DNA from: Methylotenera sp.
GTDB taxonomy: Bacteria; Pseudomonadota; Gammaproteobacteria; Burkholderiales; Methylophilaceae
NCBI GenBank assembly: GCA_021732405.1
Contig: JAKFVB010000022.1
Location: 552-64,551, forward strand
Length of the DNA stretch: 64,000 nt
Direction: 5' to 3'
Each line of letters opens with the position of its first letter. Position 1 is the first letter of the stretch. The notes under the pieces were generated by a model. That model searched no databases and had not been told where the DNA came from. It saw only the letters and a program-made list of their open reading frames with translations. Position numbers and translations under genes: made by a program. Shown here one piece after another: positions 19,780 to 63,967 of the stretch.

Positions 19780-19797
19780 GTGACAGATTAATGACAA
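19780..19797 (-). promoter_or_regulatory. Pho box-like site
   Basis: Minus strand TTGTCAT-TAAT-CTGTCAC, close to the E. coli consensus CTGTCAT-A(A/T)A(T/A)-CTGT(C/A)A(C/T); 48 bp upstream of the gene. Confidence 0.75.
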
Positions 19798-19861
19798 TAG
19801 ATTGCAATAGCGTGAATCGGTATAGTCCTAACAGGATATTTTTGCATATTGTTAATGCAAA

Positions 19862-20968
19862 TTAATGCTCAAAAACCTGCAAAATTTGTTGTGATAAATC
19901 GACCCAATTGTAGTGTGCCTCAACATGCGCGCGCGTATTTGCAGCTAATCTAGCGTGTGTTTGCATATCATTCAAAACCTCCACAATTTTTTGTGCCATT
20001 GCTGCATAGTCATCAGGCGCAATTAAATAACCTGTTTTATCAGGTAAAACCAACCCACGGTAAAACAAAAAATCCCACGCAATCGTTGGCAATCCCATGG
20101 CGGTTGCTTCTAAACAAGTGCCTGGCAAGCCTTCGTAATAAGAGGTTGAAACGTATAATTTGCTGGCTTGATAATAGGCTTGCATATCAGAGAAATTGAC
20201 TTTTCCTGTTAATTTAACCTGTTGGCTGTATGGCGCTAATTGCTCACTCACCCAAACATCATCATCGCCATAACCAACAATCACGATGCGAATATTACTT
20301 TTTTGCTGTATCAAATTTTTGCAAACTTGCACCATTGCTCTACTGCCCTTGCGGTGTTCTATGCGTCCGCAAAATAGCACATCAACCGTTTTTTCAATAT
20401 TTTGGCTAGGTTTAAAAGCCACCAAATCTGCGCCATTAGGAATAATCGCAATCGGCTTATTAATGGCATAGGTCAACAACTCCTGTTTACCTTGTTCAGT
20501 CAGCGCAATAATTTTTGCCGCTTGCTTAAAAATACGCTTTTCTATCCAGCGCTTAATCGCAATTTCCACATCATTCCACTGGCTTAAAAAATAAGGCTTA
20601 TCGTAAAACTTGCCCGACATACCAATATAAGTGGTGTGTGCGGTTAATATTAAGGGAATCTGCTTTGGTAAAAACAAGCCAGGAATAAGCGGCGGAATAT
20701 GCAAATTGACTGCCTTAATTTTTTGTTCAGCATACAACTGCTTGACGATTTTACGGGCCGCCAATATCCAAAAAAACAAATTAAAGCGGTTAGATGTAAA
20801 TGGAATATGGATGATTTGCACACTGGCATAGTGCCGCTCTACTTGATGCTCATCCCCTGTGATGAGATAAATTGTAGGTGAATTGTTTGGCAAGTTAGAT
20901 AAAAAAGAATCTAAATAACGGGCAATGCCGCCGACACCATAAAATTGCGGGTACACAATTGCAATCAT
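19862..20968 (-). CDS. Glycosyltransferase family 4
   Basis: GGIARY, GRIEHRKG, YEGLPGTCLEA. Confidence 0.88.
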   Translation of the reverse strand: MIAIVYPQFYGVGGIARYLDSFLSNLPNNSPTIYLITGDEHQVERHYASVQIIHIPFTSNRFNLFFWILAARKIVKQLYAEQKIKAVNLHIPPLIPGLFLPKQIPLILTAHTTYIGMSGKFYDKPYFLSQWNDVEIAIKRWIEKRIFKQAAKIIALTEQGKQELLTYAINKPIAIIPNGADLVAFKPSQNIEKTVDVLFCGRIEHRKGSRAMVQVCKNLIQQKSNIRIVIVGYGDDDVWVSEQLAPYSQQVKLTGKVNFSDMQAYYQASKLYVSTSYYEGLPGTCLEATAMGLPTIAWDFLFYRGLVLPDKTGYLIAPDDYAAMAQKIVEVLNDMQTHARLAANTRAHVEAHYNWVDLSQQILQVFEH

Positions 20969-22182
20969 TTCATTGCATCTTTCATGAAAAGATTTGACTC
21001 AGTTTCTTGGGTTAACCTTTCCCAAGTATAGCCAGCCATTATCTGCTGACGCGCGGCGTGTTCCATTTGGGTTTTTAATAGTGAATTAGCTAAAATATCT
21101 ACCGCTACTTTTGCGGTTTTTTCTGGGTCGTTTGCATTCACTAGCAGGCCGTTTACACCATTTTTTATAATCTCTGGCACACCTCCTACCGCAGTGCTGA
21201 CCAAGCATGTGCCTGAAGCCATCGCTTCTAACACCACTAGCGGGCAAGGGTCTTGCCACACCGATGGCAATACAACAATATCTGCTGCTGAATATACATA
21301 TCGCAATTTGTCGTGCGGCATAAAGCCTGTAAAGATAATCGCTGTGCTCACTGGTTTTGCTAGCTCAACAAGTGATTGCTCATAATCTGTTTTGGTAGCA
21401 CCGCCAAAAAATGAACTGCCCGCGATGATTAACCTTGTGTGCGGTAGTTGTGCGTGAATAGTAATAAAGGCTTTAATTAATACGTGCACGCCCTTAATTT
21501 CGGTTAATCGCCCAACGTAAAGCAAATAGGTTTTATCGGGCTGTATATCAATTAAGCCTCTCAACTGGCTAACGGCCTCATCACCATATGGCTTAAATAT
21601 TTCAGGGTCAGTGGCGTTAAATACTACGGTGAATTTATCGGCATATTCTGGAAAATACTGCAGCGCATGGCGCCTAATATAATCGCTAACACAAATAACT
21701 TTATCTACCTTTTTAAGTGCGCGGCGATAAAACGGCCTAAAAAGCGCAATACCTAAATGCGCATTGTGCATATGTAAAATAAGCGTTTGTTGCGGCATTT
21801 TTTTCATAAAAAATAAAAAATTAGGTTCGTTATGAATCACCACCATATCAAACTCGCGCACTAATTTAGCCATTCGCAGACCATAAGAAACCACGTTTTG
21901 TATTTTGGCGATGTAGCGTAGCGGGTTACGCCATGTGACTTTTTCTTTTATTTTGTAAAAAAACTGCTCTGTTTTTGTCCAAGCGATTGTTAAATAGCGA
22001 ACATTTTTAACACCAATTGCATCAGCTGGCCGCGATACTATCGTGATATCAAATTGCGCTTGGTCTAACCGTTGAGAAACCTCATGCACCCAATGCTCAA
22101 CCGCACCACCTTTAACAGGCGGTACTGGCAACATTTCTGGCACCACAATGGCTAGGCTTTTTTTAGGTATGTTTTGATTCAA
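20965..22182 (-). CDS. Glycosyltransferase family 4
   Basis: PPVKGGAVE, VGRLTEIKG, DPCPLVVLEAMASG. Confidence 0.9.
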   Translation of the reverse strand: MNQNIPKKSLAIVVPEMLPVPPVKGGAVEHWVHEVSQRLDQAQFDITIVSRPADAIGVKNVRYLTIAWTKTEQFFYKIKEKVTWRNPLRYIAKIQNVVSYGLRMAKLVREFDMVVIHNEPNFLFFMKKMPQQTLILHMHNAHLGIALFRPFYRRALKKVDKVICVSDYIRRHALQYFPEYADKFTVVFNATDPEIFKPYGDEAVSQLRGLIDIQPDKTYLLYVGRLTEIKGVHVLIKAFITIHAQLPHTRLIIAGSSFFGGATKTDYEQSLVELAKPVSTAIIFTGFMPHDKLRYVYSAADIVVLPSVWQDPCPLVVLEAMASGTCLVSTAVGGVPEIIKNGVNGLLVNANDPEKTAKVAVDILANSLLKTQMEHAARQQIMAGYTWERLTQETESNLFMKDAMK

Positions 22183-22197
22183 GATGGCGTTTTCTGG

Positions 22198-24582
22198 TTA
22201 TTGCTGCTGGCTAATACTGCTAGTTGATACCACTTCAAAATACGTGGTTGCGCCATGGCTTAATTGGCTAATATCTAGCTCAAACTCAATACCAGCATCG
22301 GTTGGTTTAACGGCAATCACATCTTGGCGCTGGCCGCGTAAATTGGTAGAAAACACCGTTAGCTGGCTTTTATAAGGTGTTTTAATGGCCAGCTTTACCT
22401 TTGCTGCTTTGATCACCACTGGCAGTTTGCCAATATCTTGCAAAATGCTTTCGCTGGCATCGCTAAAGCGCATATCGCTATTTCTGGCATCGGTAGCCAG
22501 CACAATTAGCATGCGTTTGCTGTTTGCCAACACTTGCCCATCCATCGCCGATACTGCAACCAAAGCTGCGCCGCTAGCCGACAAAACTGAAAGCTGGTTT
22601 AGCTGAATTATTGCTGGCTCGTCAAACACAACCGCCTCGGTTTTAGGAGTAATCACCATCATGCGTTTTTGCGGCGCATCCAACAAAATTTCACCCGTAT
22701 CACTTTGGTAAATACCTGCTTCAGGGTTGGTTAAGTTGCTAGCGTTAAGCAATTTAGCATCGCGCAAATTTTGCACGCGCGCTGCCCAGCGGTCATCCGC
22801 TAGCAGTTTCACCTTGCTCACTTTGTACGCCAAGCCGCTGGCATATTCTTTTAATAAGCCATGTAGTTTTAAGCCCAAATTAGTGGTGGGCTGCACCAGT
22901 TTGCCAAAACCCGCTTTATTTAATCGCAAACCTGGCTGATTAAAATCAATTTCTGCTGCTGCTTTTTGATTAATTGTTAGCTTAGGTTTGGGCTGCCAAT
23001 CTAATCCAACCCCTGTCACTAAACTTAATTTAGAAACATCCGCAGGCGTATTGCCCAAATGCGCGCTGTTTTGAAATGCATCTTGCGGCGTGAGTTTTAC
23101 GCTAATGGTATTTAGCGCAGGTGCTACATCCCCGCGCAAATAGAGTAATGCAGCTAGCGTTTCAGTGGCGCGCGATATGGGGTCTTGCCCTACTGCAAAA
23201 GAATTAATCCTATTTTTATTGGCATTCGTTTGCGTGCCAGCATAACTTAGCGTAACTGCCCCAGAATGCTGGCAAATTCCACCCCAGCTTTGCAGTGCTG
23301 CATAAGCAGGTAGGGCTAAACCCGATTCGCGCCTGTATTGATTCCAAAAAACTTGGCCATGCTCACTGACTGTGTATGCTTTGCCTAAATGTTTAGCTGC
23401 TGTTAGCTCTCTGATATAGGCTGCATGATTTTCTAGCATGCTGTCTTGGCGTACCTTTAGTTGCGTACCCACATAATCCGGGTGACCAAAATAATTATGC
23501 ATATCAACCCAGTTAAACTGGCCGCGCGTTGCTTGTGTGGCTGGCGCATGCCATAAATTGTAGCTACTCACTTGGCCTGTAAAACCAAGTTTGCGCACAT
23601 ATTGCGTCATCCAATCTGCGGTCTTTTTTTCGGTATCCACAAAAAATGCTTGTGTATCAGCCATGCGTAGCGATGTCCAAGCGTCTGGTGCAGGAAACTT
23701 AACCTGATTTTTATCCCAATTTTTATCTAAATTATTTTCTATATTTTCATCGGACTTGAGTTCACTGATACCTGTGGTTTTACTAGTCCAAGCGGATTTA
23801 AGTTTAGCGTTGCTACCATATTTTGCCTTAAGCCATTTGGCAAAATGGGGATTAAATTCCAGCTTAACACCGTTGCGATTCACAAAAGTTAAGTTGTTTT
23901 CGTTGACTAAAATCATGCCTGCAAAAGCAGGGTCTTTTATGGTTGCTAGGCCTGTATAAGGGTTTACGCTACCATACATTTTGGCAATCAATTGCCTCCA
24001 ATGCGCTTGGCTCTCTGCATCAAAATACACGCCCGCATGCAAACCTTTTTTGCCTATCCACCGCTCATTAACGTTGCCGTAACCGCCATTATCGTTACTT
24101 AATCCATTTAAAATGTAATAAATACCGTTACGTTTTAATGCAGCCAGCAAATAATAAAAACGGTCTAGTTGCTCTGGATTAAAATCAAAATCTTGCTGGC
24201 GCGCTTCCATTAATGTCGCCTCTACAAAATCCAGCCGCGCCATATTGTAGCCATGCAAACGAAATTGCTGCACATACAAATCGGTAACTGCATGACTGGG
24301 AAAGCTGCCCGTTGCGACACCAAAACCTAATGAACCAATCAAAAAGCGCTGATTTTTATTCGGCTCATTTTCAAGTGCCCAGTGGCCTTGATTATTGATT
24401 ATAAGCTTTGTTTTAATTGGTTTTTCCGGTGGCATTAAGTTAGAAAAATCTAAAATACTGCCCTCTTCAACCATCAATGAAACATCTTTTACTGGCACCC
24501 ATGTGTCTGCAGCTAAACTTGTGTCGGTAAACAAAAAGCTAATTGCTACAGGCAATAAAAAAGCCACCACTGCCGCTTTCAT
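22198..24582 (-). CDS. Secreted/periplasmic clan GH-A-like glycoside hydrolase associated with the EPS locus
   Basis: Signal peptide; GYNMARL, LVNE (acid/base-like), DMHNY, TVSEHG (nucleophile-like). Confidence 0.6.
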   Translation of the reverse strand: MKAAVVAFLLPVAISFLFTDTSLAADTWVPVKDVSLMVEEGSILDFSNLMPPEKPIKTKLIINNQGHWALENEPNKNQRFLIGSLGFGVATGSFPSHAVTDLYVQQFRLHGYNMARLDFVEATLMEARQQDFDFNPEQLDRFYYLLAALKRNGIYYILNGLSNDNGGYGNVNERWIGKKGLHAGVYFDAESQAHWRQLIAKMYGSVNPYTGLATIKDPAFAGMILVNENNLTFVNRNGVKLEFNPHFAKWLKAKYGSNAKLKSAWTSKTTGISELKSDENIENNLDKNWDKNQVKFPAPDAWTSLRMADTQAFFVDTEKKTADWMTQYVRKLGFTGQVSSYNLWHAPATQATRGQFNWVDMHNYFGHPDYVGTQLKVRQDSMLENHAAYIRELTAAKHLGKAYTVSEHGQVFWNQYRRESGLALPAYAALQSWGGICQHSGAVTLSYAGTQTNANKNRINSFAVGQDPISRATETLAALLYLRGDVAPALNTISVKLTPQDAFQNSAHLGNTPADVSKLSLVTGVGLDWQPKPKLTINQKAAAEIDFNQPGLRLNKAGFGKLVQPTTNLGLKLHGLLKEYASGLAYKVSKVKLLADDRWAARVQNLRDAKLLNASNLTNPEAGIYQSDTGEILLDAPQKRMMVITPKTEAVVFDEPAIIQLNQLSVLSASGAALVAVSAMDGQVLANSKRMLIVLATDARNSDMRFSDASESILQDIGKLPVVIKAAKVKLAIKTPYKSQLTVFSTNLRGQRQDVIAVKPTDAGIEFELDISQLSHGATTYFEVVSTSSISQQQ

Positions 24583-25511
24583 AAACGTATCACTTGACGA
24601 CAGTAATCAATGCAAAACACAGCAAAGCCAGGCAATAATGCGGCTAAACAAAGTGCATATGCGCCTACATTTGAAAACCTAGATACATTCATAAAACGAC
24701 CATCTGCCGCATGAAAGCTATAGCGCACATACAGCACTGCCCATTTAATAAACGTTTTTGGGTCATCAAAAAAATAGCGTAAATCTCTGTTTAATAGTTG
24801 CAGAAAATAACCTTTAACCAGTGCTTTTTTTTGCGGATTAGCTTTGGTTATTTGATTGCCAGAATCTTGATAAAAAATTCTTAATGGTTCATTAATGCAG
24901 CGAATCTTATATTTGCTTGCAATGGCATCCCATACAATATTTTCTGGCACAAAACGCACTGATTTATCTTCTGGAAAAGGATATTGTTTTAACACTTCAG
25001 TACGATGAAATCCCCAGCATTCGCCACGTTTTTTGTGCTTATAACGCAAATCTAAGGCGTTGGTGTCTAACGGATGACTTGCAAACAGGTCACCACAAAT
25101 TTCACCATTCTCGTACTGGCATAAAGTGACAATACCTGTAAATTCTGCGCGCTTATTGTCTGGAATAAGCTGCCACCAATGCAGCATTTTTTCTAAGGAA
25201 TCAGGCAAAAAACCATCATCTGAATCAATCGGCAAAAACAACTCTCCACGCGCTAAATTTACCCCTTTGTTAAAGGCAATATGCTTGCCTGAATTAGGCT
25301 GAAGTGTGTATAAAATGGGGAAGTTCGCTATTTTCTGCCATTGTTTAATAAGCTGATGCGTACCATCTGTAGAGCCATCATCTACAATCACCCACTCAAA
25401 ATCGTGAAAAGTTTGCGCAGCCAAACTATCAAAAACGCGGTATAAAGTATGTGCGCGATTGTAGGTTGGGGTAAATACAGTGAATTTTGGTTTAGCAGCT
25501 ATTGGTTGCAT
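24579..25511 (-). CDS. Glycosyltransferase family 2
   Basis: VFTPTYNR, VDDGSTDGT, IDSDD. Confidence 0.9.
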   Translation of the reverse strand: MQPIAAKPKFTVFTPTYNRAHTLYRVFDSLAAQTFHDFEWVIVDDGSTDGTHQLIKQWQKIANFPILYTLQPNSGKHIAFNKGVNLARGELFLPIDSDDGFLPDSLEKMLHWWQLIPDNKRAEFTGIVTLCQYENGEICGDLFASHPLDTNALDLRYKHKKRGECWGFHRTEVLKQYPFPEDKSVRFVPENIVWDAIASKYKIRCINEPLRIFYQDSGNQITKANPQKKALVKGYFLQLLNRDLRYFFDDPKTFIKWAVLYVRYSFHAADGRFMNVSRFSNVGAYALCLAALLPGFAVFCIDYCRQVIRL

Positions 25512-26710
25512 AAGTGTTCATATTTCTTTGCCAAATCGGCGGTTAATACATCATAACCACGCATTTTTTTAATATACCGCGTACCAGATTTTGCCATTAT
25601 TGTTTTTTGGTTACTGTTATTCATCAATAACAAAACAGACTTTGCAAATGCATCAGCACTTAACTCAACACAAAGCCCTGCGCCACTTTCTGTTAACACT
25701 TGCATTTGGTCAGGATTATCATTTGCAATAATCGGCAAACCAAAAGCCATATACTCAACCGCTTTGGTGGGCGATGCCATATCAAGCAAATACCCACGTG
25801 GAAATGGTGATAAACCGATTTCGGCTGCTTTTAAATAACGCCATGCATCTTGCATTGGTAGCCAGTCAGTCCACAAAATTTGCTGCATCACACCTAACCG
25901 TTGTGCTTCTTGTTTTAACCAATCTCGGTGCGTTTTGTCTTCTGCATCGCCTGCCAACACCAGCAAAATATCAGGTAATTGTTGCTTCAACATGACAAGC
26001 ATTTCAAACAGAATATGAATCTGGCGCGATTTGTCTAGCGTACCCAAATAAATAATGACGCGTTTGCCAGCAAGCCTTGCATCATCACTGGCTGCGATTT
26101 TATCTGGCTGTGCAATCTCTAAATCAACGCCCATTGGCACTGCTGTCATCTTTTGTGGGTTAACGCCTTGCAGCGCTAACATTTCAAGCATATTTTGGCT
26201 TTGCACAAACACATGATTGGCATTTGGCAAAATAATTTTATATAGTAAAAATTTCCCGATAGCGCCTTGCAATAGCGGAAACCAATATCGCATACCAGCA
26301 CTTGCACCACGCGCTTTTGCACGCTCAATTTGGCCTTCTGATTGCGGATAAGAAAGCCAATAGTAAAACGGTATATTTTTAAATTTGCACATCACGATTG
26401 CAGCAAGCGCAATCAATGTCATATCGCGCACTTGCACGGCTTGATATTGCGCGTAATCCGCGCTAATTAACACCTTGCATTGATGCAAAAATTTGAAAAT
26501 ATATTGCCCTGCGCGGTTTTGTGGCACTTTGCACAATAGTGCTTTGCCCGCTGGCCAATATGCTGCTTTTACCGTGCTTACATCTTGTTCAGTCACTAAA
26601 TCACAAGTAATACCCAAACGTGGTAAATATTTGCCAAATAATGTAGTGACATCGGCCCTAAAAGTAGGCCATTGTTCTGCGGTTAAATAGAGAATATGCA
26701 TGTTAAACAA
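25499..26710 (-). CDS. Glycosyltransferase family 4
   Basis: VPMGVD, YLGTL, SPTKAVEYMAFGLP. Confidence 0.85.
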   Translation of the reverse strand: MFNMHILYLTAEQWPTFRADVTTLFGKYLPRLGITCDLVTEQDVSTVKAAYWPAGKALLCKVPQNRAGQYIFKFLHQCKVLISADYAQYQAVQVRDMTLIALAAIVMCKFKNIPFYYWLSYPQSEGQIERAKARGASAGMRYWFPLLQGAIGKFLLYKIILPNANHVFVQSQNMLEMLALQGVNPQKMTAVPMGVDLEIAQPDKIAASDDARLAGKRVIIYLGTLDKSRQIHILFEMLVMLKQQLPDILLVLAGDAEDKTHRDWLKQEAQRLGVMQQILWTDWLPMQDAWRYLKAAEIGLSPFPRGYLLDMASPTKAVEYMAFGLPIIANDNPDQMQVLTESGAGLCVELSADAFAKSVLLLMNNSNQKTIMAKSGTRYIKKMRGYDVLTADLAKKYEHLCNQ

Positions 26711-28190
26711 GCATTTTTTTTGCTAATTGTATTTCGCGCTGCTGTTGCTGATGCAAAAATGCGGCGTATCCCAACATCAGCGAAATAATCAGCTCATGTA
26801 CTAATAAATTCACTTGGCTATCGGAGTAGATTAAGAAGAATAAGGTTAAAGCAATACCCGCTTGCAAAGCCATACAGTCTGCTTTTACTTGTGGGTTTGT
26901 TGAATTGCGCCATAACTTGCCAATTTGCACCCAAGCGGCTAGAAAAATGCTTATATACATTGTTAGCCCAACAACACCTAAATCCCACAACAAGGTAGAA
27001 ATAGTGGTTAAGTTAATACCGTAATTGGGATACAAACGTGCGATATGACCAGCATCGAAACCGTTGCCATAAGAGCTGCCTAAACCATGGCCGAATAAAA
27101 AGCTGATTGGGTCTTGCCAGCTGTGAAACTTAGCCCAAAAGGTCATCACAGTGGTGCGATTAAGTAATAGTGTGCCGTAGCCGACTTCTTGCACGTTGTA
27201 GCGCAAAATACCAGTAATTGCTTCATCAAAGCTGCTATCCAGCAAGATATACACATAAAAATAGGCCAATATTGCAGTCAATATAAGCATTAACCCGAAC
27301 ACTGGGATATATTTTGCAGGCTGGCGCATAATATCTTTGCGCAATAATACAAAAGCTAACAAAGGTAGAATGACTACAACTACTTTTGTTTCACCCAATG
27401 CAAGTGGTAACAACAAAATACCAGCGAGCAATGCCGCGCGCGATGTTTCAATTAAGCCTACTTTCCAGCGCGCAAACACAAATGCAGCTGCAATCAACAC
27501 AAAAGTAACCATAATAGAGTTAGGGCTGCCGCCTTCTAAATTGGCGCCCATTGTGCCTGCCACAACGTCAGTTGCCTCACCACCTGCTGCTAAGCCACCA
27601 CGCAAAGGCACTAAAATAAATCGTTCAAATACTGCAAAAGGTAGTTGTAAAAGCGCAATAATTAGTAACAACTTAAGCCATAAATCAAAATCTTGCTTGT
27701 TATTCGCTAAAGTCACTAAGGCCAGCAATAAGCCAAAGGTTTGAAAGTAGCGTTTAAACCCTGTAAATAGCTCACCTAAACCATGTAATTGCGAAACGCT
27801 GACAATGAGTGCATACAGCACAAAAATAAGGGCAAGCCAAATAAACAGCGGTATCGTTTTTTTTTGTTCTGGATTAAAACTAAATAAATTCAATAAGCCC
27901 GGCACAAACAACAATAACGCCATCATAGAAACAGCCCACAGCACGCGATGAAAACCGTGCCCCACCATATCCAACAAAGCTGGTGTTGCCAAGCCAAGCG
28001 CAATCACTAGCCAGATGGTTTTTTTAGGAATTGCCAGTAAAAATGTACCGCCAACCAAGCCTGCTGCTAGCCCAATTAAAATGGGGTTTGCAGTCACTGA
28101 AATTAAGCCAAACAAAAAGGCAAGGCCACTGGCCACCATAAAGAAAGCCACTTTTACCCAAATGCCATGTCCATTTTTTAGTGTTTGCAT
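26703..28190 (-). CDS. Putative Wzy polysaccharide polymerase / O-antigen-ligase-like protein
   Basis: About 12 TM segments; FLFGHGLGS and LWDLGVVG motifs; lies within the GT cluster. Confidence 0.7.
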   Translation of the reverse strand: MQTLKNGHGIWVKVAFFMVASGLAFLFGLISVTANPILIGLAAGLVGGTFLLAIPKKTIWLVIALGLATPALLDMVGHGFHRVLWAVSMMALLLFVPGLLNLFSFNPEQKKTIPLFIWLALIFVLYALIVSVSQLHGLGELFTGFKRYFQTFGLLLALVTLANNKQDFDLWLKLLLIIALLQLPFAVFERFILVPLRGGLAAGGEATDVVAGTMGANLEGGSPNSIMVTFVLIAAAFVFARWKVGLIETSRAALLAGILLLPLALGETKVVVVILPLLAFVLLRKDIMRQPAKYIPVFGLMLILTAILAYFYVYILLDSSFDEAITGILRYNVQEVGYGTLLLNRTTVMTFWAKFHSWQDPISFLFGHGLGSSYGNGFDAGHIARLYPNYGINLTTISTLLWDLGVVGLTMYISIFLAAWVQIGKLWRNSTNPQVKADCMALQAGIALTLFFLIYSDSQVNLLVHELIISLMLGYAAFLHQQQQREIQLAKKMLV

Positions 28191-28229
28191 ATTGTTAACA
28201 TCATTTTTTATTCAACTTTTTGATTAAAT

Positions 28230-30326: not shown

Positions 30327-30345
30327 ATTTCTAATCGCATAAAAT

Positions 30346-31812: not shown

Positions 31813-31848
31813 CGTATTATTTCAGATAGCCGACTGATAGCTGGTTTG

Positions 31849-32580
31849 CTAAATTGAATTAGTACTGTCTTGATTCAGGCTGCCTGTTAATCGCAGGCGC
31901 TGGCTAGGTGAAACGCCAGTTAATAAATCGTTGGTAAAGCGTGTTTGCAAGGCATACGCTTGGTTGATATCGGTGCTTTCAATTGATGAGGTAATGCTGG
32001 ATACACGCATCAATAGGCCATCTGGAATGCTGCCACTTAACGCATATTCCAGCTTAATTTTTTTGGTTTCCCAGCCTGGATAACCGACTTTTTTACCTGT
32101 GGTGAGCCAATAAGTAATGGGTTCTATTCGGTCTGATTTTCTGGCTAATAACCGCAATACAGGAATATCGCCAAAAGCAGTGTTTAACTGGCCTTTAAGA
32201 ATACTATTTACCGCAAAACCTTGGCCGCTGTAACAGCCCTCTGGCGCATGTGCGCCTACGCTATCGCTTTGATCGCGGCCATAAGCAATAGATAACATAA
32301 TGCGCTGGCCTTTGCCGTTTTCGTATACGCGCGATAATGTTTGCGCATAAATTTTATCCAGCGCAGCGGCGGTTTCTGGGTTAACAATTTGCGATGATAA
32401 ATTTAAAATGCGCCAATCGTTAAATTGCTGCGGAATTAGCTGCTCTAAATTTACCTGCTCACCCTCATCGGCGATTCTGTGCGTAGGGCGGGCAGCATAA
32501 GCAAATACCGATGTACATATCATGATGAGCATTAATAAATAGTGGCGTTTGCTATGGTAACTAATTGGCATGCTAGGCAA
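31849..32580 (-). CDS. epsI: Exosortase-associated EpsI
   Basis: IYAQTLSRVY, IMLSIAYG, HAPEGCYSGQGF, PDGLLMRVSS. Confidence 0.88.
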   Translation of the reverse strand: MPSMPISYHSKRHYLLMLIMICTSVFAYAARPTHRIADEGEQVNLEQLIPQQFNDWRILNLSSQIVNPETAAALDKIYAQTLSRVYENGKGQRIMLSIAYGRDQSDSVGAHAPEGCYSGQGFAVNSILKGQLNTAFGDIPVLRLLARKSDRIEPITYWLTTGKKVGYPGWETKKIKLEYALSGSIPDGLLMRVSSITSSIESTDINQAYALQTRFTNDLLTGVSPSQRLRLTGSLNQDSTNSI

Positions 32581-33448: not shown

Positions 33449-33451
33449 TAC

Positions 33452-34357: not shown

Positions 34358-34407
34358 AAGTTTTTGTGGCCAAAAATGTGCTTAAAAATATATTCTAAAA
34401 TGTAGGC

Positions 34408-35835: not shown

Positions 35836-35932
35836 GTGTAATCGCTTTTTTGTTTGATTGGTTGATATTGTTAACGGTTATTTTTTGTCAATATTTGAAT
35901 GTTAATTGTGCTTAAGTAGTGATTAAGCTTGG

Positions 35933-37015: not shown

Positions 37016-37089
37016 CTTTACTTTTATGCTTGCATTTTTTTGTTTTAATATTTACTTAATATCTACCTAAACAAATTTAATGTAAGTGC

Positions 37090-44458: not shown

Positions 44459-44461
44459 TTC

Positions 44462-47930: not shown

Positions 47931-47964
47931 ATAGTAATAGGACTATGTGACGATAAAATTACAA
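47931..47964 (-). promoter_or_regulatory. Pho box-like promoter of the tpsB-exbB-exbDD-tonB-porin operon
   Basis: TTGTAAT-TTTA-TCGTCAC, 10 bp spacer, TACTAT (-10). Confidence 0.65.
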
Positions 47965-57000: not shown

Positions 57001-58827
57001 TACTTGGCGCACAAAACCTGCCAAGTTAGCCACGCGTGAGTCTGGCGTATTGCGGATATCAAACATCACAAATTGCCGATTTAAAAATTCGTTGCGGTTA
57101 ATCGGGTCATCGTTAAGATCGGTTTGCGTCAATAAAGCCTCTACAAAATTACGACCTAAATCCACCTCTACATTTTTTAAACCTGCTGCATCTACTAGTG
57201 TATTTTTACCTAAATAAAGTCGTGATTGGGTTTCTGGATTAGTACTACCAATACCTTGACCAAATAACTGCCCAGTTTGCGCTGTAATATTGATAAAGCC
57301 GCCAGGCACCACGATTTTAGCGTTATCGTTAACAGTCACCTGTCTACCAATTGCCTCTATTACGGGTGGATTAAATATTTGGTCATCGGTAATGGTAGTA
57401 CCCATTACATTGACTGCAGATAACACTTTATTCAAATACGATTTATCGCCGCCTCTTGCTTCAGGCTCGCCGATTTGTGGTGATGAAAATAATTCATTCA
57501 CCTTGTAAACAGCGGCTTTATCTTCAGCCAAAATAGTAGTCACACTGTTTTCACCAAAACTGAGTTGTCCGTTGCGGCTACCCGTGATTAAGGTGTTAGG
57601 AATTGATTCATTGCCAACGGTTAATCGATTAGTAAATTGCGTGGCTACATTGTTTGCATCATAAACCAGCTCATCCGACTCTAACGCCCTTGTATCTCTT
57701 GCCAACAAGCGTATTGAGCCTTTTTGGGTGGCTGAAGATGTCGCAGTAACGCGACCATTTTGATTCACCAAGTATGACGCCATAGTGACATTGCCGCGCT
57801 GCGCTAAAATACGGCCAGATGTGTCATTAGTTACTGTGCCAAATAGCTCTGTGGCTTGATTTTCAATCGATGGGTCAATTTCATCTGGTTTCAGTTGGTA
57901 AGAATCCACTTCTACCAATACGCCTGCCAAACCTTTAAGTGCAGAATCATCTGCATAATCAAACGTTCCTGACGCTACTTCATTCAGCTCTGGCGCGTAA
58001 GATAAATACACTTTGTCACCAGCCGCCAACGCAACTTGGCCTCCGTTAGTTTCAATACTGCCTTGGTTAATCACTTTTGGGGCAAATAATAAAACTGAGC
58101 TACCCAAGGCTGCTTTAATTTGGGCATCTGGTTCTACTTGTACTAATACGGTTTGAAAGCCATTTGCATCACCACCCCAATTATAAGCGGCACGGTTAGC
58201 GCCTAAAAAAGCCGGTAATAAATGGCCTTGCTCACTTAAAAAATCAGTATCTTGCAAATCGAGTGCAGAGGCCACCAAGCCATTCACATTCACGCGTGCG
58301 CCGTTGGCAAACAAAATACCATTTTGGTTAATCAAATAAACACTGCCGTTTGGTGAGTTTAGTGCACCCTGAATAATACTTTTAGGGCCATTAATGCGGA
58401 CCAAAGTAGCCGAACCCGCGCCACCTAAATGATTAAAGTTAACAGTGGCAGCAGAGCCAATATTAAAGTTGGTACCTTGCAAGATACCTTTTTGCGTAAT
58501 CTGATTAATATTTAATAACCCATTTGAGCCAGTAGGCAATTGGCCTGCAGTCAATGGCGCACCGCCGTTACCAACATAACTACCGCTTGTTATGTTCAAG
58601 CCAGTTGGTATCGTTAATGCATCTGCAAATGAAACCTTAACCGACCCTACCAAGCTAATACCAAGTATTAATATAGTTAAGCTTATTTTTTTAGATTGTT
58701 TAAGCGCTTTTTTAAATGCCTTTCCAGCGCCATTTTTGCCAGATTGATGCCCACGAACATGCTCACCTACCGCCATCCAAATACCACGAGATGTGTTGTA
58801 AACAAGACGATAAATTCCAATATTCAT
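48037..58827 (-). CDS. Giant filamentous-hemagglutinin-like TpsA with DUF3739-type C-terminus (3596 aa)
   Basis: ESPR leader (IYRLVYN...WMAVGE), TPS domain (FNIG...LINQNGILF), beta-helix repeats (DVSGG), YTLLPARYALLPGA, VNQSRVFT...IDAGRG. Confidence 0.9.
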   Translation of the reverse strand: MNIGIYRLVYNTSRGIWMAVGEHVRGHQSGKNGAGKAFKKALKQSKKISLTILILGISLVGSVKVSFADALTIPTGLNITSGSYVGNGGAPLTAGQLPTGSNGLLNINQITQKGILQGTNFNIGSAATVNFNHLGGAGSATLVRINGPKSIIQGALNSPNGSVYLINQNGILFANGARVNVNGLVASALDLQDTDFLSEQGHLLPAFLGANRAAYNWGGDANGFQTVLVQVEPDAQIKAALGSSVLLFAPKVINQGSIETNGGQVALAAGDKVYLSYAPELNEVASGTFDYADDSALKGLAGVLVEVDSYQLKPDEIDPSIENQATELFGTVTNDTSGRILAQRGNVTMASYLVNQNGRVTATSSATQKGSIRLLARDTRALESDELVYDANNVATQFTNRLTVGNESIPNTLITGSRNGQLSFGENSVTTILAEDKAAVYKVNELFSSPQIGEPEARGGDKSYLNKVLSAVNVMGTTITDDQIFNPPVIEAIGRQVTVNDNAKIVVPGGFINITAQTGQLFGQGIGSTNPETQSRLYLGKNTLVDAAGLKNVEVDLGRNFVEALLTQTDLNDDPINRNEFLNRQFVMFDIRNTPDSRVANLAGFVRQVPRAVGEKLADGGAVTLRSEGDFIQRTGSTVDVSGGSLRFNAGISRETWLEAADGRSYALGDAPADTLFVGFLGGRNVRLLQEAGYTEGRGSRLVNGRVLNAQQGQTQAVALQIEASTIALDGQLLGGGIYGERQREADNMMAQLSINLILPTTLTPAQNVNIGNTVALAGNFATDSVLPTNRASTVEIDAGMLSRSGFEDIAITTGGSVQVNSAVNLVNGAKIAITGREIQVNQNIVSRSGDIALTTEFIEGIVGSADTNITVANGVKLDVSGNWINDTNGALQTGRIQEHGGSVSISSTDEVTLGTGSLVDVSGGGYLHNVRNRAELDNGNAGSIHIATQVDQGTALNPFTYVAPKLNGELRGFALGTGGDLSITAPFITIGNSGFGDAREFLATPEFFQDSGFVSFNLTGRDGVIVRSNTDVSVVAKNYQLNRNFQLQRTGARVNDFATPTLLPAFNRASTTLTLATQSALMASVSDPFLASGVSRGSIVVEANANIKVDSNGARESVTGGTVVPSISLSAWDNQIVVDGTLQALGGDISLVMNGSPSAIDDNGYNAAQAIWLGENAVLNASGHTALAPTNVNQRIGTVYDGGHVNIDANKGFVVAKTGSEINVAGTSAVLDIRNTNSITPTRIASNGGEVSISAREGILLDSTFNASSPGGLAGSLDVRLTRGGTTSLGLITSPYPGTLPSDINVGNAPDQLWYIDVAQSGTFVPDSLNVGDAVQPAASGVAKISADRITEGGFSDVALKSEYGVRFTGDVNLTTSRSISLNARVIEATADSSVTLTAPNVVLANEFETQAIRPNSEYTATTPVAGNAQFTVNANLADLRGSFALSGFSNTAINSQGDIRLTGISNPNLAAGGFRQPPTGTLLTKGALELNARQIYPTTLTDYTITVSGIGSTVTINKINPASGYDAVLSAGGTLNINAETINQNGVLLAPFGTIALNASDTLNLNAGSVTSVSAQNALIPFGFTQQDGLDYLYNFGPANLVLNSAPERVVRLNAPNVNQNEDSVIDISGGGDLFAYEWVPGLGGSSDVLAADANQQAFGQNATNTWVILPNNNQTFASFDPQYWQGSNIKAGDAVYISGAPGVAAGYYTLLPARYALLPGAVLVSAVSGAQDRTEGLTSTLVNGSTLVSGHLAAFTSNGYTQTARTAGFVVRSDADAYKLAQYNTTTASAFFSGNTQAQRTIDAGRLSIAATESLVLRGTLTAITQQGGSGSEVDIAAPNLLVVGAGEQTGQVDLNGINYLAIDETTLANFNAASLLLGGTRSQGNVDVVSGEVRLNGNANVTGPEVILAATDTVRLDSGATLTGRGTGAGARNITIGNVTNSAGVLDGDGALVRVSGGAAATLTRTNVNADRGDLIIDTGATVVADGSVLLDGSRNTSLQGDIDFAEGAALAFSSGRISLGAPVNGESVADGLWLQDEQLAEFTAAGSLSLNSQSTIDIYGSATFGNNNFDLTLQSAGLAGYQNNGQTATITAQNLTIGNNNNAVFAPATALSNGTVPTLGTGNLVIQAETVNLGNNTERLAGYDQIDINASREIVAAGSTARPTAAATPNQLLADNNLTLSAPRLTTASRADYAINAGNLNTGTLKVQGSVGAQPTNLASPQSQGTRLSLSGDKVILAGGTTQTSNITDRHAAAIVVKGGQVTVSATGAAATDNVTLENGASINVTGSLFTINDQTVALPAGSVALQSANGDIDVQTGALIDVSAAGNGDAGRFSASAVNGDVRLAGTIKAVESGKNAIASVDAKSISNISQVLAALGNFAAEQMFRVREGDITIGASDKITANSVKVNVDQGAITVNGTIDASGNKGGNIELFAKNDVTINRGAKLLAKGLADTNSTAGSLGNGGDVIISSDAGIVRTVASDANGLSGALIDVSGDQVGAVRGENGDVIFRAARTGVGAGNGVNVDSQAAAAVTGARRVLIEAVKQYTNADFGNQANITINAAQQTTIRTDTNNFAAAIAPTIASFSPTRDGLAAIIAPSVDIFSTGDLNVGVVNNFTVQNNWVLGNSTTAANLLVNSGGILNLRAANNLNINGNIDYEQFSVANNIIAPRSGSWSYRLVAGADRTAANIETTLAGAGNISVRDGQFVRTGTGFIHAAAGNNLNLGTLNGAGAAIYTTGLPDTTNPVDFIGLSFAQDREIYADGGGDINIALGGNLAGSAREAQTQTVTDWVFHTAQNSTTQNTQARWWNRYDTVTTGLPANRTAGFTNGLATLGGGDVNIQTAGQVSNLQVAAANNGRLGGPLNEAPNLASFEELGGGDVNLQANGAVSQVLLYTGKGDINAQSGSDLSATIALMDGQASLVATGNITVTGASNPTITSSESRTRLANFYTYTEDAAVSAVSLAGNIEVRGNTEAYPSNLFAATPNGNINIESVTLFPSRTGNATLLAGNNINIDGLVISEVDPNTLPFITTNFLGVARPQISTFQGGAAHTAGLLHINDTEPVRIYALNDIAFNNEVTTDGVSTFNIAAPLITPKATIISAGNDVVDANVILQNIRPTDISVIEAGNNIYYNDAGQSGGTLQISDGGIQVTGPGRLHVTANKDIDLGTSDGIRSLGNLYNPFLPTQGADLLVQAGAAAVADFEGVLNAYVDPASIYSSIYLPQLTQLIRTRTGDSSIDSTQALTAFRQLDKQSQTGFINSVYFAELRAGGRDALDVNNSSFGDYSRSQRAILTMFPTFAQPETTQSLLASTGSIMNGFESIGNEEVSNPGDLSLFYSQIRSESGGAIEILVPGGLVNAGLAVASSIAKPDSELGIVTLRGGDLLGFVRDDFLVNQSRVFTLGGSDLLLYSALGSIDAGRGAKTSSSTPPPLITIQNGQVTFDFSGAVTGSGIAALTSTGGVPGRASLFAPYGEINAGEAGIRSAGDIDLGARVIIGADNIKVGGTSTGLPVASTGAAGLTAPASSDPTAQNKQGSEIAESTKTDGNKLAALPSLITVEVISLGDELAPTSPKLKPCVPDDKTKKDCQP

Positions 58828-60717: not shown

Positions 60718-61575
60718 TTAAGCAGCTTTATTACGACGACGTGCAATACCTGCCACCAAACCTAAACCAGCTAACAACATGGCATATGTTTCTGGTTCTG
60801 GCACTGGCGCTACTGCAATGCGCAAACGCCATTCGTCATTTTGTAAATAAGTGCTTACAACGATTGGTGCATTGTCAAATGAAAGCAACTGTGTATTTAG
60901 CGCAGGAGTATTTTGTGAACCAACTGTAGTTGTTTGCGCCAATAAGAATATACCTGTTGATGCACCTAAAATATTAGTTGTATCAGTAATATTGTTAGCG
61001 TAAGTACTACCGAAGTTACCTGCGTAAGCAGCGCCGTTTGTTGAGCTTGTAACAGCAAATGTATCTTCAGCAGGCTCAATAATAAAACCATTTGAAGTTA
61101 GTGCATAAGTCTGCCAAGCAGTGGCTGCTTGAGTCACAAGTTGGTTAGTTGATGTTAATGGGCCTGAATCACCTTGAGTGAACAATACACGTCTACGTCC
61201 AGTTACATCGATTGCACCTAAATTCCACTGTACTTGAGAAAAGTCAGCAAAATTAGCTGTGCTAAAACCAGTTAATGCTTGGTCAAAAATAACGCCATCA
61301 GCACCAATTAATGAAGAAGCCACTCTAGCATTTTCCAAAACAGCCACGTTACCTGCTGCTGTTGTAGGTGAATCTAAACCTGCTAAATCGTGAAAAACTC
61401 TATCCCAGTTTAAATCGTATGTATAACCAATACCTGCGTTAGCATCCCAAGCACTGAACACAAACTCTGAGCTGCCTGTTGTTGTTGACGAAGCAGCTGT
61501 AATTGCCGCGTTTACTGACATTGAAGATGCAGCTAAAACTACTGCCGCAACCAATGTATTTAATTTAATTTTCAT
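60718..61575 (-). CDS. PEP-CTERM sorting-domain protein
   Basis: Signal peptide; Thr/Ala/Ser-rich body; VPEPETYAMLLAGLGLVAGIARRR; AGGAG RBS. Confidence 0.92.
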   Translation of the reverse strand: MKIKLNTLVAAVVLAASSMSVNAAITAASSTTTGSSEFVFSAWDANAGIGYTYDLNWDRVFHDLAGLDSPTTAAGNVAVLENARVASSLIGADGVIFDQALTGFSTANFADFSQVQWNLGAIDVTGRRRVLFTQGDSGPLTSTNQLVTQAATAWQTYALTSNGFIIEPAEDTFAVTSSTNGAAYAGNFGSTYANNITDTTNILGASTGIFLLAQTTTVGSQNTPALNTQLLSFDNAPIVVSTYLQNDEWRLRIAVAPVPEPETYAMLLAGLGLVAGIARRRNKAA

Positions 61576-61929
61576 GCCGTACTCCTAAAAATAAAAAAAT
61601 GTAAAACTTAACTTCTAAACCACTCGAAAAAAACCTTCAAAATCTGTCGCTTAATATCTGCGTCGTTTAAAGCCATTTAACAAAATCACTCGCAACATCT
61701 TTATATTTAAGATGCATAGCCCACTTATATAATAAGTAATTGCTATCGCCTTACGACCGTTGCCATATTAATTGGGCAATGTGAAACCAACATGTTCAAA
61801 CATAGTCTGTTCGGCTTACATCAATTTGTTATTAAAGCTTTGTAGAAGCGCGTTGCTTTATTTTATAAAAACGCTTTTATTGATTGTGCTGATAATGCCC
61901 TCTAAATGTGACAGGCATTAAAAAATGGC

Positions 61930-61947
61930 ATAGTCCTATCGGACTAT
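61930..61947. promoter_or_regulatory. Palindromic operator candidate ATAGTCC-N4-GGACTAT
   Basis: Perfect 7-bp arms in the divergent promoter region; related copy at 19822-19839. Confidence 0.55.
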
Positions 61948-62010: not shown

Positions 62011-62044
62011 GCGTCATCATGACGTCATTTTTCATTCTTATGAT
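62011..62044 (+). promoter_or_regulatory. Pho box-like promoter of dsbC
   Basis: GCGTCAT-CATG-ACGTCAT, 10 bp spacer, TATGAT (-10). Confidence 0.65.
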
Positions 62045-62107: not shown

Positions 62108-62857
62108 ATGTCTTATTTCAATCGCACATTTATCAATCAAACCTTAAACATGTGCTTAATTTCTGCTGGTTTATACACAGTTTCATTGCCTGTTTTGGCG
62201 GATGAAGCCAGTGATATTGCGGCTATTAAATCTAATTTAGAAGCCAGAAAACCGCCATTGCTGGCAAAAAGTATTCAAGCATCACCTATTGCAGGTTTGT
62301 ATGAAGTATTTGCCAATGGCAATATTCTGTACGTTAATAAAAATGTGTCGCACGTGATTGTTGGCGGCGCTTTGTTAGATGGCGCAACCAAGCAAAACTT
62401 AACGGCAGAAAGATTAAAAGTTTTGACCACCATTAAGTTTGACAGCCTGCCACTTAAGAACGCCATTGAAATTAAAAAGGGCACTGGCGCGTATAAATTT
62501 GCCGTTTTTTCTGACCCTGATTGCCCATTTTGCAAAACATTAGAGCAAGGTTTAGATAAGCTGGATTTAACCGATTACACAGCTTATGTGTTTTTATTCC
62601 CGCTAAAAGAATTGCACCCTGATGCAGTGGCAAAAGCAGAATCAATTTGGTGTGCAAAAGATAAAAAAGAGGCATGGACTAACTTAATGGTAAAAGGCGA
62701 TGAGCCAGCAAAAGCCACCTGCGCCAACCCGATTGCAGAAAATGAAAAACTGGCTAATCAATTAGGCGTGGCGGGCACACCGACTATTTATTTAGAAGAT
62801 GGCCAACAAACGCAATCGCCACAAGAGTTGGTTAAGGCGATTAAAAAAGAGATTTAA
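62108..62857 (+). CDS. dsbC: Disulfide isomerase DsbC
   Basis: SPIAGLYEV dimerisation domain, FSDPDCPFCK, IWCAKD, GTPT; ATG 62108. Confidence 0.9.
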   Translation: MSYFNRTFINQTLNMCLISAGLYTVSLPVLADEASDIAAIKSNLEARKPPLLAKSIQASPIAGLYEVFANGNILYVNKNVSHVIVGGALLDGATKQNLTAERLKVLTTIKFDSLPLKNAIEIKKGTGAYKFAVFSDPDCPFCKTLEQGLDKLDLTDYTAYVFLFPLKELHPDAVAKAESIWCAKDKKEAWTNLMVKGDEPAKATCANPIAENEKLANQLGVAGTPTIYLEDGQQTQSPQELVKAIKKEI

Positions 62858-62910: not shown

Positions 62911-62974
62911 GCCTAAGTTTTAAATGCTCATTGATTTTTTACAGTGAGATTAAACTGATACTTTACTCAATAGC

Positions 62975-63826
62975 TTAGTTATTTCTAACCTTAACTAAAC
63001 CCAATTTAGCGGCCTTAACCGCAGCCTGACCGCGATTTTGTACATCTAATTTGCGCAAAATATTTTGCACATGATTTTTAACGGTAAGCGGGCTAATATC
63101 TAAAATAGTCGAAATTTCCCAGTTAGTTTTACCCATGTGCACCCACTGCAAAATCTCTGACTCTCGCCCTGTGATTTTTTTTGCGGATTTGCTCACTTGT
63201 ACCACGCTGCTGCGATTGCTAGTGACGCGAATGAGCGCACAGTGCAGGTGCGGCATAATTAGTTCTAATATTCTGGAATGGTTGCTACTGATTTTTTTGG
63301 ATAAACGCCCAAACACCACAAATGTGGATATTCTAGTGTGATTATCGCCAAAGCCATGCGCTAAGAAATCACCCATTTCAGATGCTTTTAAGCTAGCTTG
63401 TGGTAAGTTAATTACCGAATATTGGTTAAATTCGTTGGCCTGCATTTGATTGGTGGCTAAAACAGGTTGCGCGGTTTTTTTCCAGGCATGCAGCGCTTGG
63501 CTGACCAAACCCACTTCACGCTCTATCGCTTCATTAAAACGTGTTTCATCAAAATAACGCGAGCTGGTGAAATATTCAAAATCATAATCTTCAGTTTCGT
63601 TAGATTTAATGCCAAAAATCATCACTTCGTGCGCAAGCAAATACTGAAAGCCTGCCTGCAACCAGTTAAACAAATGCGTGCGTTGCGATAAGCGCAGCGA
63701 TTCTTCGATGACTTCCATAAAAACAACGCGCTGCTCGTCATCTAAACAAGCTTCGGCTTTTACGGGTTCATCGAGATTAAAATTTGAGCTAATAATCATG
63801 CATTTTGTTTGTTTGTGCACAAACAT
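62975..63826 (-). CDS. epsA: XrtB/PEP-CTERM-associated LuxR-family regulator EpsA
   Basis: LIMPHLHCAL; HTH ITGRESEILQWVHMGKTNWEISTILDISPLTVKNHVQNILRKL. Confidence 0.85.
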   Translation of the reverse strand: MFVHKQTKCMIISSNFNLDEPVKAEACLDDEQRVVFMEVIEESLRLSQRTHLFNWLQAGFQYLLAHEVMIFGIKSNETEDYDFEYFTSSRYFDETRFNEAIEREVGLVSQALHAWKKTAQPVLATNQMQANEFNQYSVINLPQASLKASEMGDFLAHGFGDNHTRISTFVVFGRLSKKISSNHSRILELIMPHLHCALIRVTSNRSSVVQVSKSAKKITGRESEILQWVHMGKTNWEISTILDISPLTVKNHVQNILRKLDVQNRGQAAVKAAKLGLVKVRNN

Positions 63827-63844
63827 ATTTTATAAGTTGCAGGC

Positions 63845-63911
63845 AGTTTGGCCTTGTTTAGTGACAGCGTGATTAAGGTTAGATGGCAGTTTTTTTACAG
63901 TTTTGTAACAA
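63845..63911 (-). promoter_or_regulatory. Array of pho-box-like half-sites upstream of epsA
   Basis: TTGTTAC (63905), CTGTAAA (63894), CTGCCAT (63883) and CTGTCAC (63861) in 11-bp phase; then 10 bp and CAAACT. Confidence 0.65.
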
Positions 63912-63967
63912 AAGCCTAGTCATGTGCATCACTAAAAACTGTCATATTGCTAGTGAATAATAGCCAC

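Follow-up and report, generated by a model that had tools for sequence, protein, structure and literature searches.

The promoters of a methanolan-type exopolysaccharide island of Methylotenera sp. share their box with the phosphate-starvation genes of the same genome and are therefore likely to be activated by PhoB at low phosphate; a second, palindromic signal, TAGYCC-N4-GGRCTA, lies upstream of most PEP-CTERM genes of this genome. The preferred reading, given a probability of about two in three from the sequence comparisons below, is that PhoB activates the island at low phosphate and that EpsA, a LuxR-type regulator encoded in it, binds the palindrome and relays the signal to surface-protein genes. 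Given both signals, the slime coat is predicted to be turned on in two steps when phosphate is low.

Source and gene content

The window, i.e., the whole stretch of DNA analysed (64,000 nt), was taken from assembly GCA_021732405.1, contig JAKFVB010000022.1, positions 552-64,551 of the forward strand; the host genome assembly is 89% complete. The following genes were assigned:

18200..19708, minus strand: choice-of-anchor-I family PEP-CTERM surface protein (NF038117 over cut-off; PF22494 and PF07589)
19862..38139, minus strand: methanolan-type eps operon (epsD, E, F, G, xrtB/epsH, epsI, flippase, glycosyltransferases)
38359..40265, minus strand: CAAX-protease-related gene and epsL
40363..47863, minus strand: tpsB, exbB fusion, two exbD, tonB, Porin_5 and an unknown gene
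48037..58827, minus strand: tpsA, 3596 aa, DUF3739
59059-60633: 524-aa protein with a weak PstS-like domain, after the FxDxF-type PEP-CTERM gene
60718..61575, minus strand: FxDxF-type PEP-CTERM protein
62108..62857, plus strand: dsbC-like disulfide isomerase
62975..63799, minus strand: epsA, LuxR-type HTH regulator of the island type (TIGR03020 over cut-off)
ATG at 63968, plus strand: gene resembling a lytic transglycosylase (judged by eye)

xrtB, epsI, epsF, epsE, epsD, epsL and epsA all scored above their NCBIfam cut-offs and epsG just below; by gene content the island is an XrtB/methanolan-type eps locus. It continues on contig C36 with T2SS gspG, a nucleotidyltransferase and epsB, where Pho-type boxes were found too; the C5-C36 junction is unassembled. 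A terminator at 58973-59000 lies between the upstream genes and tpsA. For the 524-aa protein the best PstS-like match was weak (E 0.43) and the single-sequence fold prediction unusable (pLDDT 31.5). The choice-of-anchor-I domain is one that we presume to have a phosphatase role, putative in the 18200..19708 protein; a PDB search with this protein gave no informative match, and a phosphatase label was sought for it and not obtained.

Pho-type promoters

Matrix: The training set was confined to phoB and pstS promoters of relatives (48 distinct sites kept from 58 regions); the host genome's own loci and L012, a phoB locus without a promoter of its own, were left out. Among 1533 upstream regions of the host genome, pstS, an OprP-type porin and phoB ranked at the top; pstC, ppk, PhoX, OlsB and a lipid-remodelling cluster were recovered by the same matrix. 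The host genome has PhoB/PhoR and a Pst system: phoB is above the TIGR02154 cut-off with a kinase-sized gene adjoining, and pstS is followed by three ABC-type genes.

Sites: The nine motif strings reported in a first-pass annotation of this DNA were all present at their positions, each pointing to the adjacent gene. Six of them share one geometry, two 7-nt half-sites separated by 4 nt, with the -10 following after a further 10 nt; two-box scores are followed by the share of upstream regions scoring as high:

19764..19797, minus strand: choice-of-anchor-I gene, weak -10; 14.5 (0.7%), rank 10/1533
38184..38217, minus strand: epsD, proximal; 17.6 (0.3%), rank 4/1533
40290..40323, minus strand: CAAX gene, upstream half-site degenerate; 8.2 (equalled or beaten by 4.5%)
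47931..47964, minus strand: tpsB; 15.4 (0.4%), rank 6/1533
62011..62044, plus strand: dsbC; 15.1 (0.6%), rank 9/1533
63845..63911, minus strand: epsA, five phased half-site positions, 10 nt, -10; 11.9 (1.4%), rank 22/1533

The earlier count of four half-sites in the epsA array is corrected to five phased positions. The remaining three calls, each a lone half-site with a -10 (38278, 61892 and 63939), scored 1.5, 1.4 and 1.7 and are not significant on the two-box model, because about 28% of upstream regions score as high; six two-box sites of the original set therefore stand and three single-half-site calls are weak alone. The third of these (63939..63961, plus strand) ends 6 nt before the ATG at 63968, a distance identical in 6/7 genomes; its transcript is likely leaderless. 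A model of a single half-site plus -10 was dropped, since its top ranks were mostly unrelated genes and it did not discriminate.

Enrichment: The top ten of the 1533 regions include four island promoters (epsD, tpsB, dsbC and the choice-of-anchor-I gene). At least 14 bits were reached by 4/20 island upstream regions against 11/1533 genome-wide (hypergeometric p = 6.6e-6), and 0/1000 dinucleotide shuffles matched the observed count (null mean 0.007), so that enrichment over shuffled intergenic background, the check proposed with the original sites, was obtained; a two-box score of at least 8 bits is reached by 5% of the host genome's upstream regions. Over 61 upstream regions (own and orthologous) the 4-nt/10-nt spacing gave a mean of 11.3, the other 34 spacing pairs at most 7.9. 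The matrix scan found no Pho box inside the eps operon, 19862..38139. A consensus sigma70 scan of 58700-64000 returned 2 sites against 13 expected and was uninformative. Upstream of tpsA the score was 1.1 without a box, and the gene lies behind the terminator.

Conservation: In Methylophilaceae orthologs the boxes are kept at the exact 4- and 10-nt spacing. The epsD box reached at least 11 bits in 13/17 epsD loci (own included), the control, operon-internal epsL, in 0/30; the CAAX-gene box reached at least 8 in 15/23 loci. Upstream of island-type epsA a box of at least 8 bits was found in 35/40 closest homolog loci, against 2/21 for the other EpsA subfamily; the reverse-strand control at epsA (10/29 loci at 8 or more) is not clean because the divergent promoter occupies the same region. 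Where tpsB has been relocated, the exbB-fusion gene itself bears a box (17.9 in G057, 10.5 in G025). In G100, a close relative, the choice-of-anchor-I box has a degenerate second half-site. By matrix rank alongside canonical Pho genes and by conservation, the PhoB reading is well supported for epsA, epsD, tpsB, dsbC and the genes of the CAAX and choice-of-anchor-I proteins; it does not cover tpsA.

The palindrome and composite promoters

The palindrome, absent from the first-pass annotation, has an exact copy at 61931-61946. Upstream of the PEP-CTERM genes it occurs in two geometries, either abutting a TTG-type -35 or about one helical turn farther upstream, with 15-16 nt between it and a lone PhoB-type half-site. 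Host regions (1363) were ranked with a matrix whose training came from relatives; the top 17 comprise 10 PEP-CTERM genes, 4 of their divergent partners, 2 genes of one PEP-CTERM operon, in which a 5'-nucleotidase-like protein and an ExeM nuclease are encoded, and 1 EPS glycosyltransferase, it being noted that the palindrome was first spotted in three promoters that later entered the counts. In 7 other genomes a PEP-CTERM gene adjoins 24/45 sampled palindromes (strict tail pattern). Most dispersed PEP-CTERM cargo genes carry the palindrome and no Pho box; two layers therefore describe the data better than the single phosphate-starvation regulon proposed earlier, of which the box shared among island promoters is retained.

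Composite arrangements were found or proposed as follows; two of the lone half-sites above (38278, 61892) have the palindrome 15-16 nt upstream:

19785..19838, minus strand: choice-of-anchor-I gene, candidate; palindrome 19823-19838 (2 mismatches), 15 nt, half-site 19801-19807, 10 nt, -10 at 19785-19790
38278..38331, minus strand: epsD, distal, candidate; degenerate palindrome 38316-38331, 15 nt, lone half-site, 10 nt, -10
61765..61818, minus strand: FxDxF gene, proximal, candidate; palindrome 61803-61818 (3 mismatches), 15 nt, half-site 61781-61787, 10 nt, -10
61892..61946, minus strand: FxDxF gene, distal; exact palindrome 61931-61946, a putative EpsA operator; then 16 nt, half-site 61908-61914 standing alone, 10 nt, -10

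The last ranks 1/1525 on the composite model; the epsD distal candidate ranks 3 and passes in only 2/16 relatives' epsD loci. Half-site/-10 matches downstream of palindromes fell at offset 15-16 in 27/38 cases, most of the relatives' offset-15 composites appearing to be orthologs of a single gene. In the host genome the 15-16 gap gave 6 composite matches and five other gap pairs 0-1.

Proposed assignment of the regulators

EpsA and the palindrome: The island EpsA stands apart as a subfamily of its own, sharing 27-30% identity with the best TIGR03020 scorers. At least 3 exact palindromes were counted in 28/35 genomes with island-type EpsA (80%) and in 7/86 without (8%), a co-occurrence confounded with PEP-CTERM content and drawn from related genomes that are not independent. 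Of the genomes with island-type EpsA, seven contain fewer than 3 exact copies, and three to four of these (G035, G078, G083, G064) lack them altogether. In favour of the link, G028, with 12 PEP-CTERM matches and no EpsA match, has no exact palindrome. The palindrome also occurs where only the other EpsA subfamily is present (17 copies in G045; at 3/7 PEP-CTERM genes in G001). It is somewhat improbable, and still the strongest of the alternatives, that PhoB acts directly on the island while the palindrome is bound by another regulator travelling with PEP-CTERM genes, with no relay from PhoB to EpsA. Such a binder would account for the confounding just named and for G007 (99% complete) and G010 (92%), in which EpsA was sought and not found and which carry 6 and 8 palindromes, several adjoining PEP-CTERM genes. 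It sits poorly with the 80% against 8% and with the palindrome staying beside EpsA homologs in distant Betaproteobacteria. The inverted repeat stands at a fixed position upstream of target promoters, as in a LuxR/NarL-family operator; an operator abutting the -35 is the class II LuxR-box arrangement, and the position of the palindrome fits a LuxR-family class II activator.

PhoB and its paralogs: The half-sites of the island depart from those in the training set and are more degenerate than pstS/phoB boxes, so another OmpR-family protein, responding to a signal other than phosphate, might read these direct repeats, and the host genome encodes eight other full-length members. This was judged unlikely: pstS, the OprP porin, phoB, pstC and ppk rank alongside the island sites on one matrix, and PhoB was found in 114/121 genomes. 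CreB, the paralog closest to the PhoB model, was ruled out as the binder, not being found in G025, G074 and G057, which keep the boxes (18-21 candidates scored per genome).

RNA structure or chance: It was considered very unlikely that the palindrome works as RNA, by forming a terminator or leader hairpin, or is a dispersed repeat instead of a protein operator. The 61929-61948 copy is flagged terminator-like and the arms tend to covary (44 T/A, 10 C/G, 5 mixed), yet other genomes often have copies with mixed arms, several copies separate divergently transcribed genes, neither of which reads into them, the palindromes keep fixed distances upstream of predicted -10 elements, and tandem copies recur at 33-bp spacing. 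Chance matching in AT-rich intergenic DNA, for which the commonness of single half-site matches and the three sites unremarkable on the two-box model might speak, is the least probable reading, the shuffle, genome-rank, spacing and conservation tests all being contrary, and is refuted for the six two-box sites.

Proposed mechanism: In the preferred two-layer reading, phosphorylated PhoB would act directly on epsA and on the operons for EPS, export and Ton/TPS, turning them on; EpsA dimers would activate dispersed PEP-CTERM cargo alone and would act together with PhoB at composite promoters, some of which may need both. Such a coherent feed-forward loop would yield, under phosphate limitation, a polysaccharide coat with anchored proteins, some of them possibly linked to phosphorus scavenging. 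A wider proposal, for and against which the chances appear evenly balanced, is that TAGYCC-N4-GGRCTA is the EpsA operator and, for exosortase-B/PEP-CTERM systems throughout Betaproteobacteria, the cis-element so far missing; in Methylophilaceae it would be wired under PhoB, an EpsA dimer one helical turn off taking the place of the upstream PhoB half-site at composite promoters, to give a phosphate-gated AND switch for surface display and slime. An operator, a candidate regulator and a nutrient signal make PEP-CTERM surface-protein control directly testable, would allow regulon prediction from sequence in floc- and biofilm-forming Betaproteobacteria, and would tie slime production of a widespread methylotroph family to phosphorus limitation.

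Comparison with known systems

A phosphate-starvation link was not known to be described for methanolan-type loci. PhoB control is published for a similar TPS/ExbBD/TonB set (Pseudomonas aeruginosa) and for EPS (Sinorhizobium); in the literature searched, outside which most subscription papers lie, neither a PhoB link to PEP-CTERM, methanolan or exosortase-B loci nor TAGYCC-N4-GGRCTA or any EpsA site was found.

Classical Pho boxes: PhoB boxes of the E. coli type (P. aeruginosa pstC, vreA) are two 7-bp direct repeats in 11-bp phase in place of the -35 (PMC4971064, PMC3333781), and Methylophilaceae phoB and pstS promoters have the same geometry. The island boxes are more degenerate, several having a single good half-site, preceded at 15-16 nt by a palindrome.

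PUMA3: The P. aeruginosa regulon under PhoB and sigmaVreI at phosphate starvation comprises the hxc T2SS, tpsA/tpsB, exbB2, exbD2, a tonB-like gene and PA0696-99 (PMC2729926, PMC4971064). The island is similar by gene content alone (T2SS, TPS pair, ExbBD/TonB, PPIase); PhoB with a dedicated second factor would be paralleled by PhoB with EpsA. No vreAIR-like ECF sigma, FecR or receptor genes were found in the 64-kb window (genome 89% complete, C5-C36 unjoined), the only two FecR-domain matches of the host genome being on contigs C53 and C20. The island -10 stands 10 nt past the box and is sigma70-like, whereas pdtA has separate -35 and -10 elements.

Methanolan loci: Relative to the eps cluster of Methylobacillus sp. 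12S and XrtB-EpsA loci, the island has orthologs of epsA, D, E, F, G, H/xrtB, I and L; the epsA genes of the best TIGR03020 scorers, unlike the island's, lack an upstream Pho box in 19/21 loci.

Exosortase-A systems: Control by PrsK/PrsR/sigma54, with a common upstream motif on dispersed PEP-CTERM genes, is described in PMC1569441, where further motifs and regulators outside sigma54/PrsR are said still to be found. Both systems mark dispersed genes by an upstream motif; in the island the motif differs, the promoters are sigma70-type and the candidate regulator is LuxR-type.

Sinorhizobium meliloti EPS II: For galactoglucan, PhoB induces, according to PMC3233446, the EPS operons and the cluster's own activator WggR, which binds palindromes beside the Pho box, a feed-forward logic like that proposed for PhoB and EpsA. 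WggR is of the MarR family and EpsA LuxR-type, the polysaccharide systems differ, and in the island the influence of the second regulator appears to extend to dispersed PEP-CTERM cargo genes.

Island Gene Content and Setting

All nine PhoB-type motifs listed in the first-pass annotation were found in the window at their stated coordinates, each oriented to the neighbouring gene, and the promoter feature is real. Family scans of the window identified the island as an exosortase-B, methanolan-type locus:

EPS part, window: epsD/E/F/G, xrtB, epsI, flippase, glycosyltransferases, epsL, CAAX-related gene
Ton/TPS part, window: tpsB-exbB-exbD-exbD-tonB-porin, then tpsA
Remaining island genes, window: two PEP-CTERM genes, dsbC, epsA

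The closest homologs of EpsA were in records labelled Methylotenera or Methylophilaceae; PhoB and the pst operon are encoded in the genome under study (G000). In relatives the island runs on into genes that sit here on contig C36 (T2SS, nucleotidyltransferase, PEP-CTERM gene, epsB). This continuation (G000:C36:8738-20878, L255) also holds a glycosyltransferase; its Pho-type boxes rank 15, 23, 28 and 42, and its gspG promoter carries a conserved array including a perfect 8-bp inverted repeat (4-nt spacer). Other window genes: 59059-60633, 524-aa secreted-looking protein that weakly matches a PstS-like domain (PBP_like_2) and is encoded directly upstream of tpsA, where the Pseudomonas cluster has its Hxc-secreted phosphatase gene; 11876-16553, adjoining the island, genes for an HD-GYP-like response regulator, a receiver protein, a hybrid kinase and an RpfF-like crotonase, which may together make up a DSF-type signalling set; 3014-7459, PQQ methanol-dehydrogenase-type gene, xoxJ/moxJ-like gene and two cytochrome c genes.

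Pho-Box Ranking and Conservation

The Pho matrix was trained only on upstream regions of relatives' phoB (29) and pstS (29), 48 distinct sites being kept; its layout was half-site, 4 nt, half-site, 10 nt, TA(A/T)AGT. Scanning of 1533 upstream regions (gene calls made in this analysis) gave the following ranks: pstS 1, OprO/P porin 2, phoB 3, pstC 5, ppk 8; island genes, epsD 4, tpsB 6, dsbC 9, choice-of-anchor-I gene 10, epsA 22; others, a glycosyltransferase resembling glycolipid synthases 7, PhoX 20, OlsB 30. At least 14 bits was reached by 4/20 island regions vs 11/1533 genome-wide (p = 6.6e-6), and at least 9.5 bits by 10/26 regions of the island with its C36 extension vs 46/1533 (p = 8e-10). 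The island count was reached in 0/1000 shuffles, and the 4/10 spacing scored above all 34 alternative spacings. The PhoB-type assignment is well supported for epsD, tpsB, dsbC, the choice-of-anchor-I gene, epsA and the CAAX gene. Three sites of the first-pass annotation (38278, 61892 and 63939) were ordinary on this two-box matrix; contrary to that annotation, tpsA lacks a box and lies behind a terminator. A cluster headed by a Pho box beside the pst operon (G000:C25:23620-26462, L254) encodes a PAP2 phosphatase, a phospholipase C of the zinc-dependent type and a glycosyltransferase, likely a phospholipid-replacement module.

Across Methylophilaceae orthologs, the epsD box scored at least 11 in 13/17 loci and the CAAX box at least 8 in 15/23; operon-internal epsL reached at least 11 in 0/30. 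Upstream of island-type epsA (the subfamily encoded in the window) a box of at least 8 was present in 35/40 closest loci, but in 6/38 scored distant loci; for the second EpsA subfamily, in 2/21. Where tpsB is located elsewhere (G057, G025), the exbB-fusion gene has its own box; the 19780 box is half lost in G100.

Compared with the training sites, those of the island are more degenerate, which would fit a paralog of PhoB, another OmpR-family regulator, reading the repeats; such a reading is improbable. CreB, one of these paralogs, was not found in three near-complete relatives that retain the boxes (18–21 candidates scored per genome). Motifs, spacing, enrichment, conservation and co-occurrence were observed directly; PhoB~P is predicted to turn on epsA as well as the operons for EPS, export and Ton/TPS (probability about 0.85).

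Palindrome

Alignment of orthologous promoters revealed a conserved palindrome, TAGYCC-N4-GGRCTA, with 8 exact copies in the genome under study, 7 of them intergenic. A matrix trained on relatives was used to rank 1363 regions; the motif had originally been spotted in three of the promoters later counted. The top 17 comprised 10 PEP-CTERM genes, 4 divergent neighbours of these, 2 genes of a PEP-CTERM operon that also encodes an ExeM nuclease and a 5'-nucleotidase-like protein, and 1 EPS glycosyltransferase; 13/17 PEP-CTERM genes with upstream space were within the top 41. In seven other genomes (strict pattern), a PEP-CTERM gene was adjacent at 24/45 sampled sites.

Among 121 family genomes, in which kin are not independent, at least three exact palindromes were counted in 28/35 with island-type EpsA vs 7/86 without it, the latter including 4/29 with the other EpsA type only. 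Contrary cases exist: exact copies numbered zero in four genomes that do carry island-type EpsA; G045 and G001 have the palindrome with the other subfamily alone, and G007 and G010 have it although EpsA was searched for there and not found. The palindrome is probably bound by EpsA.

Further observations: tandem palindromes in G021, G045 and G054 repeat at exactly 33-bp spacing, 19-bp spacing being also found; in the operon G000:C23:23415-30723 (L256), an ExeM/NucH nuclease gene and a 5'-nucleotidase-like gene are each followed by a PEP-CTERM gene and each preceded by a palindrome; at C1:21151-23302, PhoX is followed by a PEP-CTERM gene. In genus g29 (L342, L344, L361, L364) a short TGTAC-N4-GTACA-like palindrome was seen by eye before several PEP-CTERM genes, in genomes without exact TAGYCC-N4-GGRCTA copies. 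A second EpsA paralog, of the other subfamily (G000:C26:33749-34516, L263), heads a polysaccharide cluster of its own that includes a WcaJ-type gene; its Pho-box score fell outside the top 45.

Candidate Composite Promoters

LuxR-type boxes abut the -35. TTG followed the palindrome immediately in 19 of 91 de-duplicated palindrome-gene pairs, in which -10-like hexamers peaked at offsets 22–23 and 32–33; 27/38 half-site/-10 hits began 15–16 nt past the palindrome, most being apparently orthologs of one gene beside epsA, with other genes too. The composite model (palindrome, 15–16 nt, lone half-site, 10 nt, -10) placed site 61892 at rank 1 and site 38278 at rank 3 of 1525 regions in the genome under study, so both weak sites are accounted for as composite promoters; the 5'-nucleotidase-like and choice-of-anchor-I genes came next, and other gaps gave 0–1 hits. 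At site 63939 the start codon follows the -10 by exactly 6 nt in 6/7 genomes, which suggests a leaderless transcript.

That composite promoters require both PhoB and EpsA is slightly more likely than not. The PhoB control proposed in the first-pass annotation was largely right, but it makes up one layer of what is probably a two-layer circuit.

Comparison with Known Systems

No PhoB link for methanolan-type loci and no EpsA binding site for them were found in the mostly non-subscription literature searched; the operator and wiring were not found in print, and the regulatory logic is already known. A sigma54/PrsR motif is described for PEP-CTERM control and further motifs are declared undiscovered (PMC1569441), and EpsA of Curvibacter (2026) is called a potential regulator only, PhoB being unmentioned (PMC13751637). 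Outside the family, Aquabacterium olei plasmid pTB101 (L268:1-25654) has the same cassette (T2SS, EpsA-like LuxR, PEP-CTERM, TPS pair, ExbBD, TonB, porin); there the LuxR gene is preceded by a Pho-like box scoring 10.6 bits, and exbB by a palindrome with 2 mismatches. No ECF/FecR gene, as in the P. aeruginosa sigmaVreI system, is present in the window. S. meliloti EPS II is controlled by PhoB plus a cluster-encoded activator that binds palindromes near Pho boxes (PMC3233446), and in P. aeruginosa PhoB and sigmaVreI govern a T2SS/TPS/ExbBD gene set (PMC4971064, PMC2729926) that resembles the island's, the two being likened by gene content alone.
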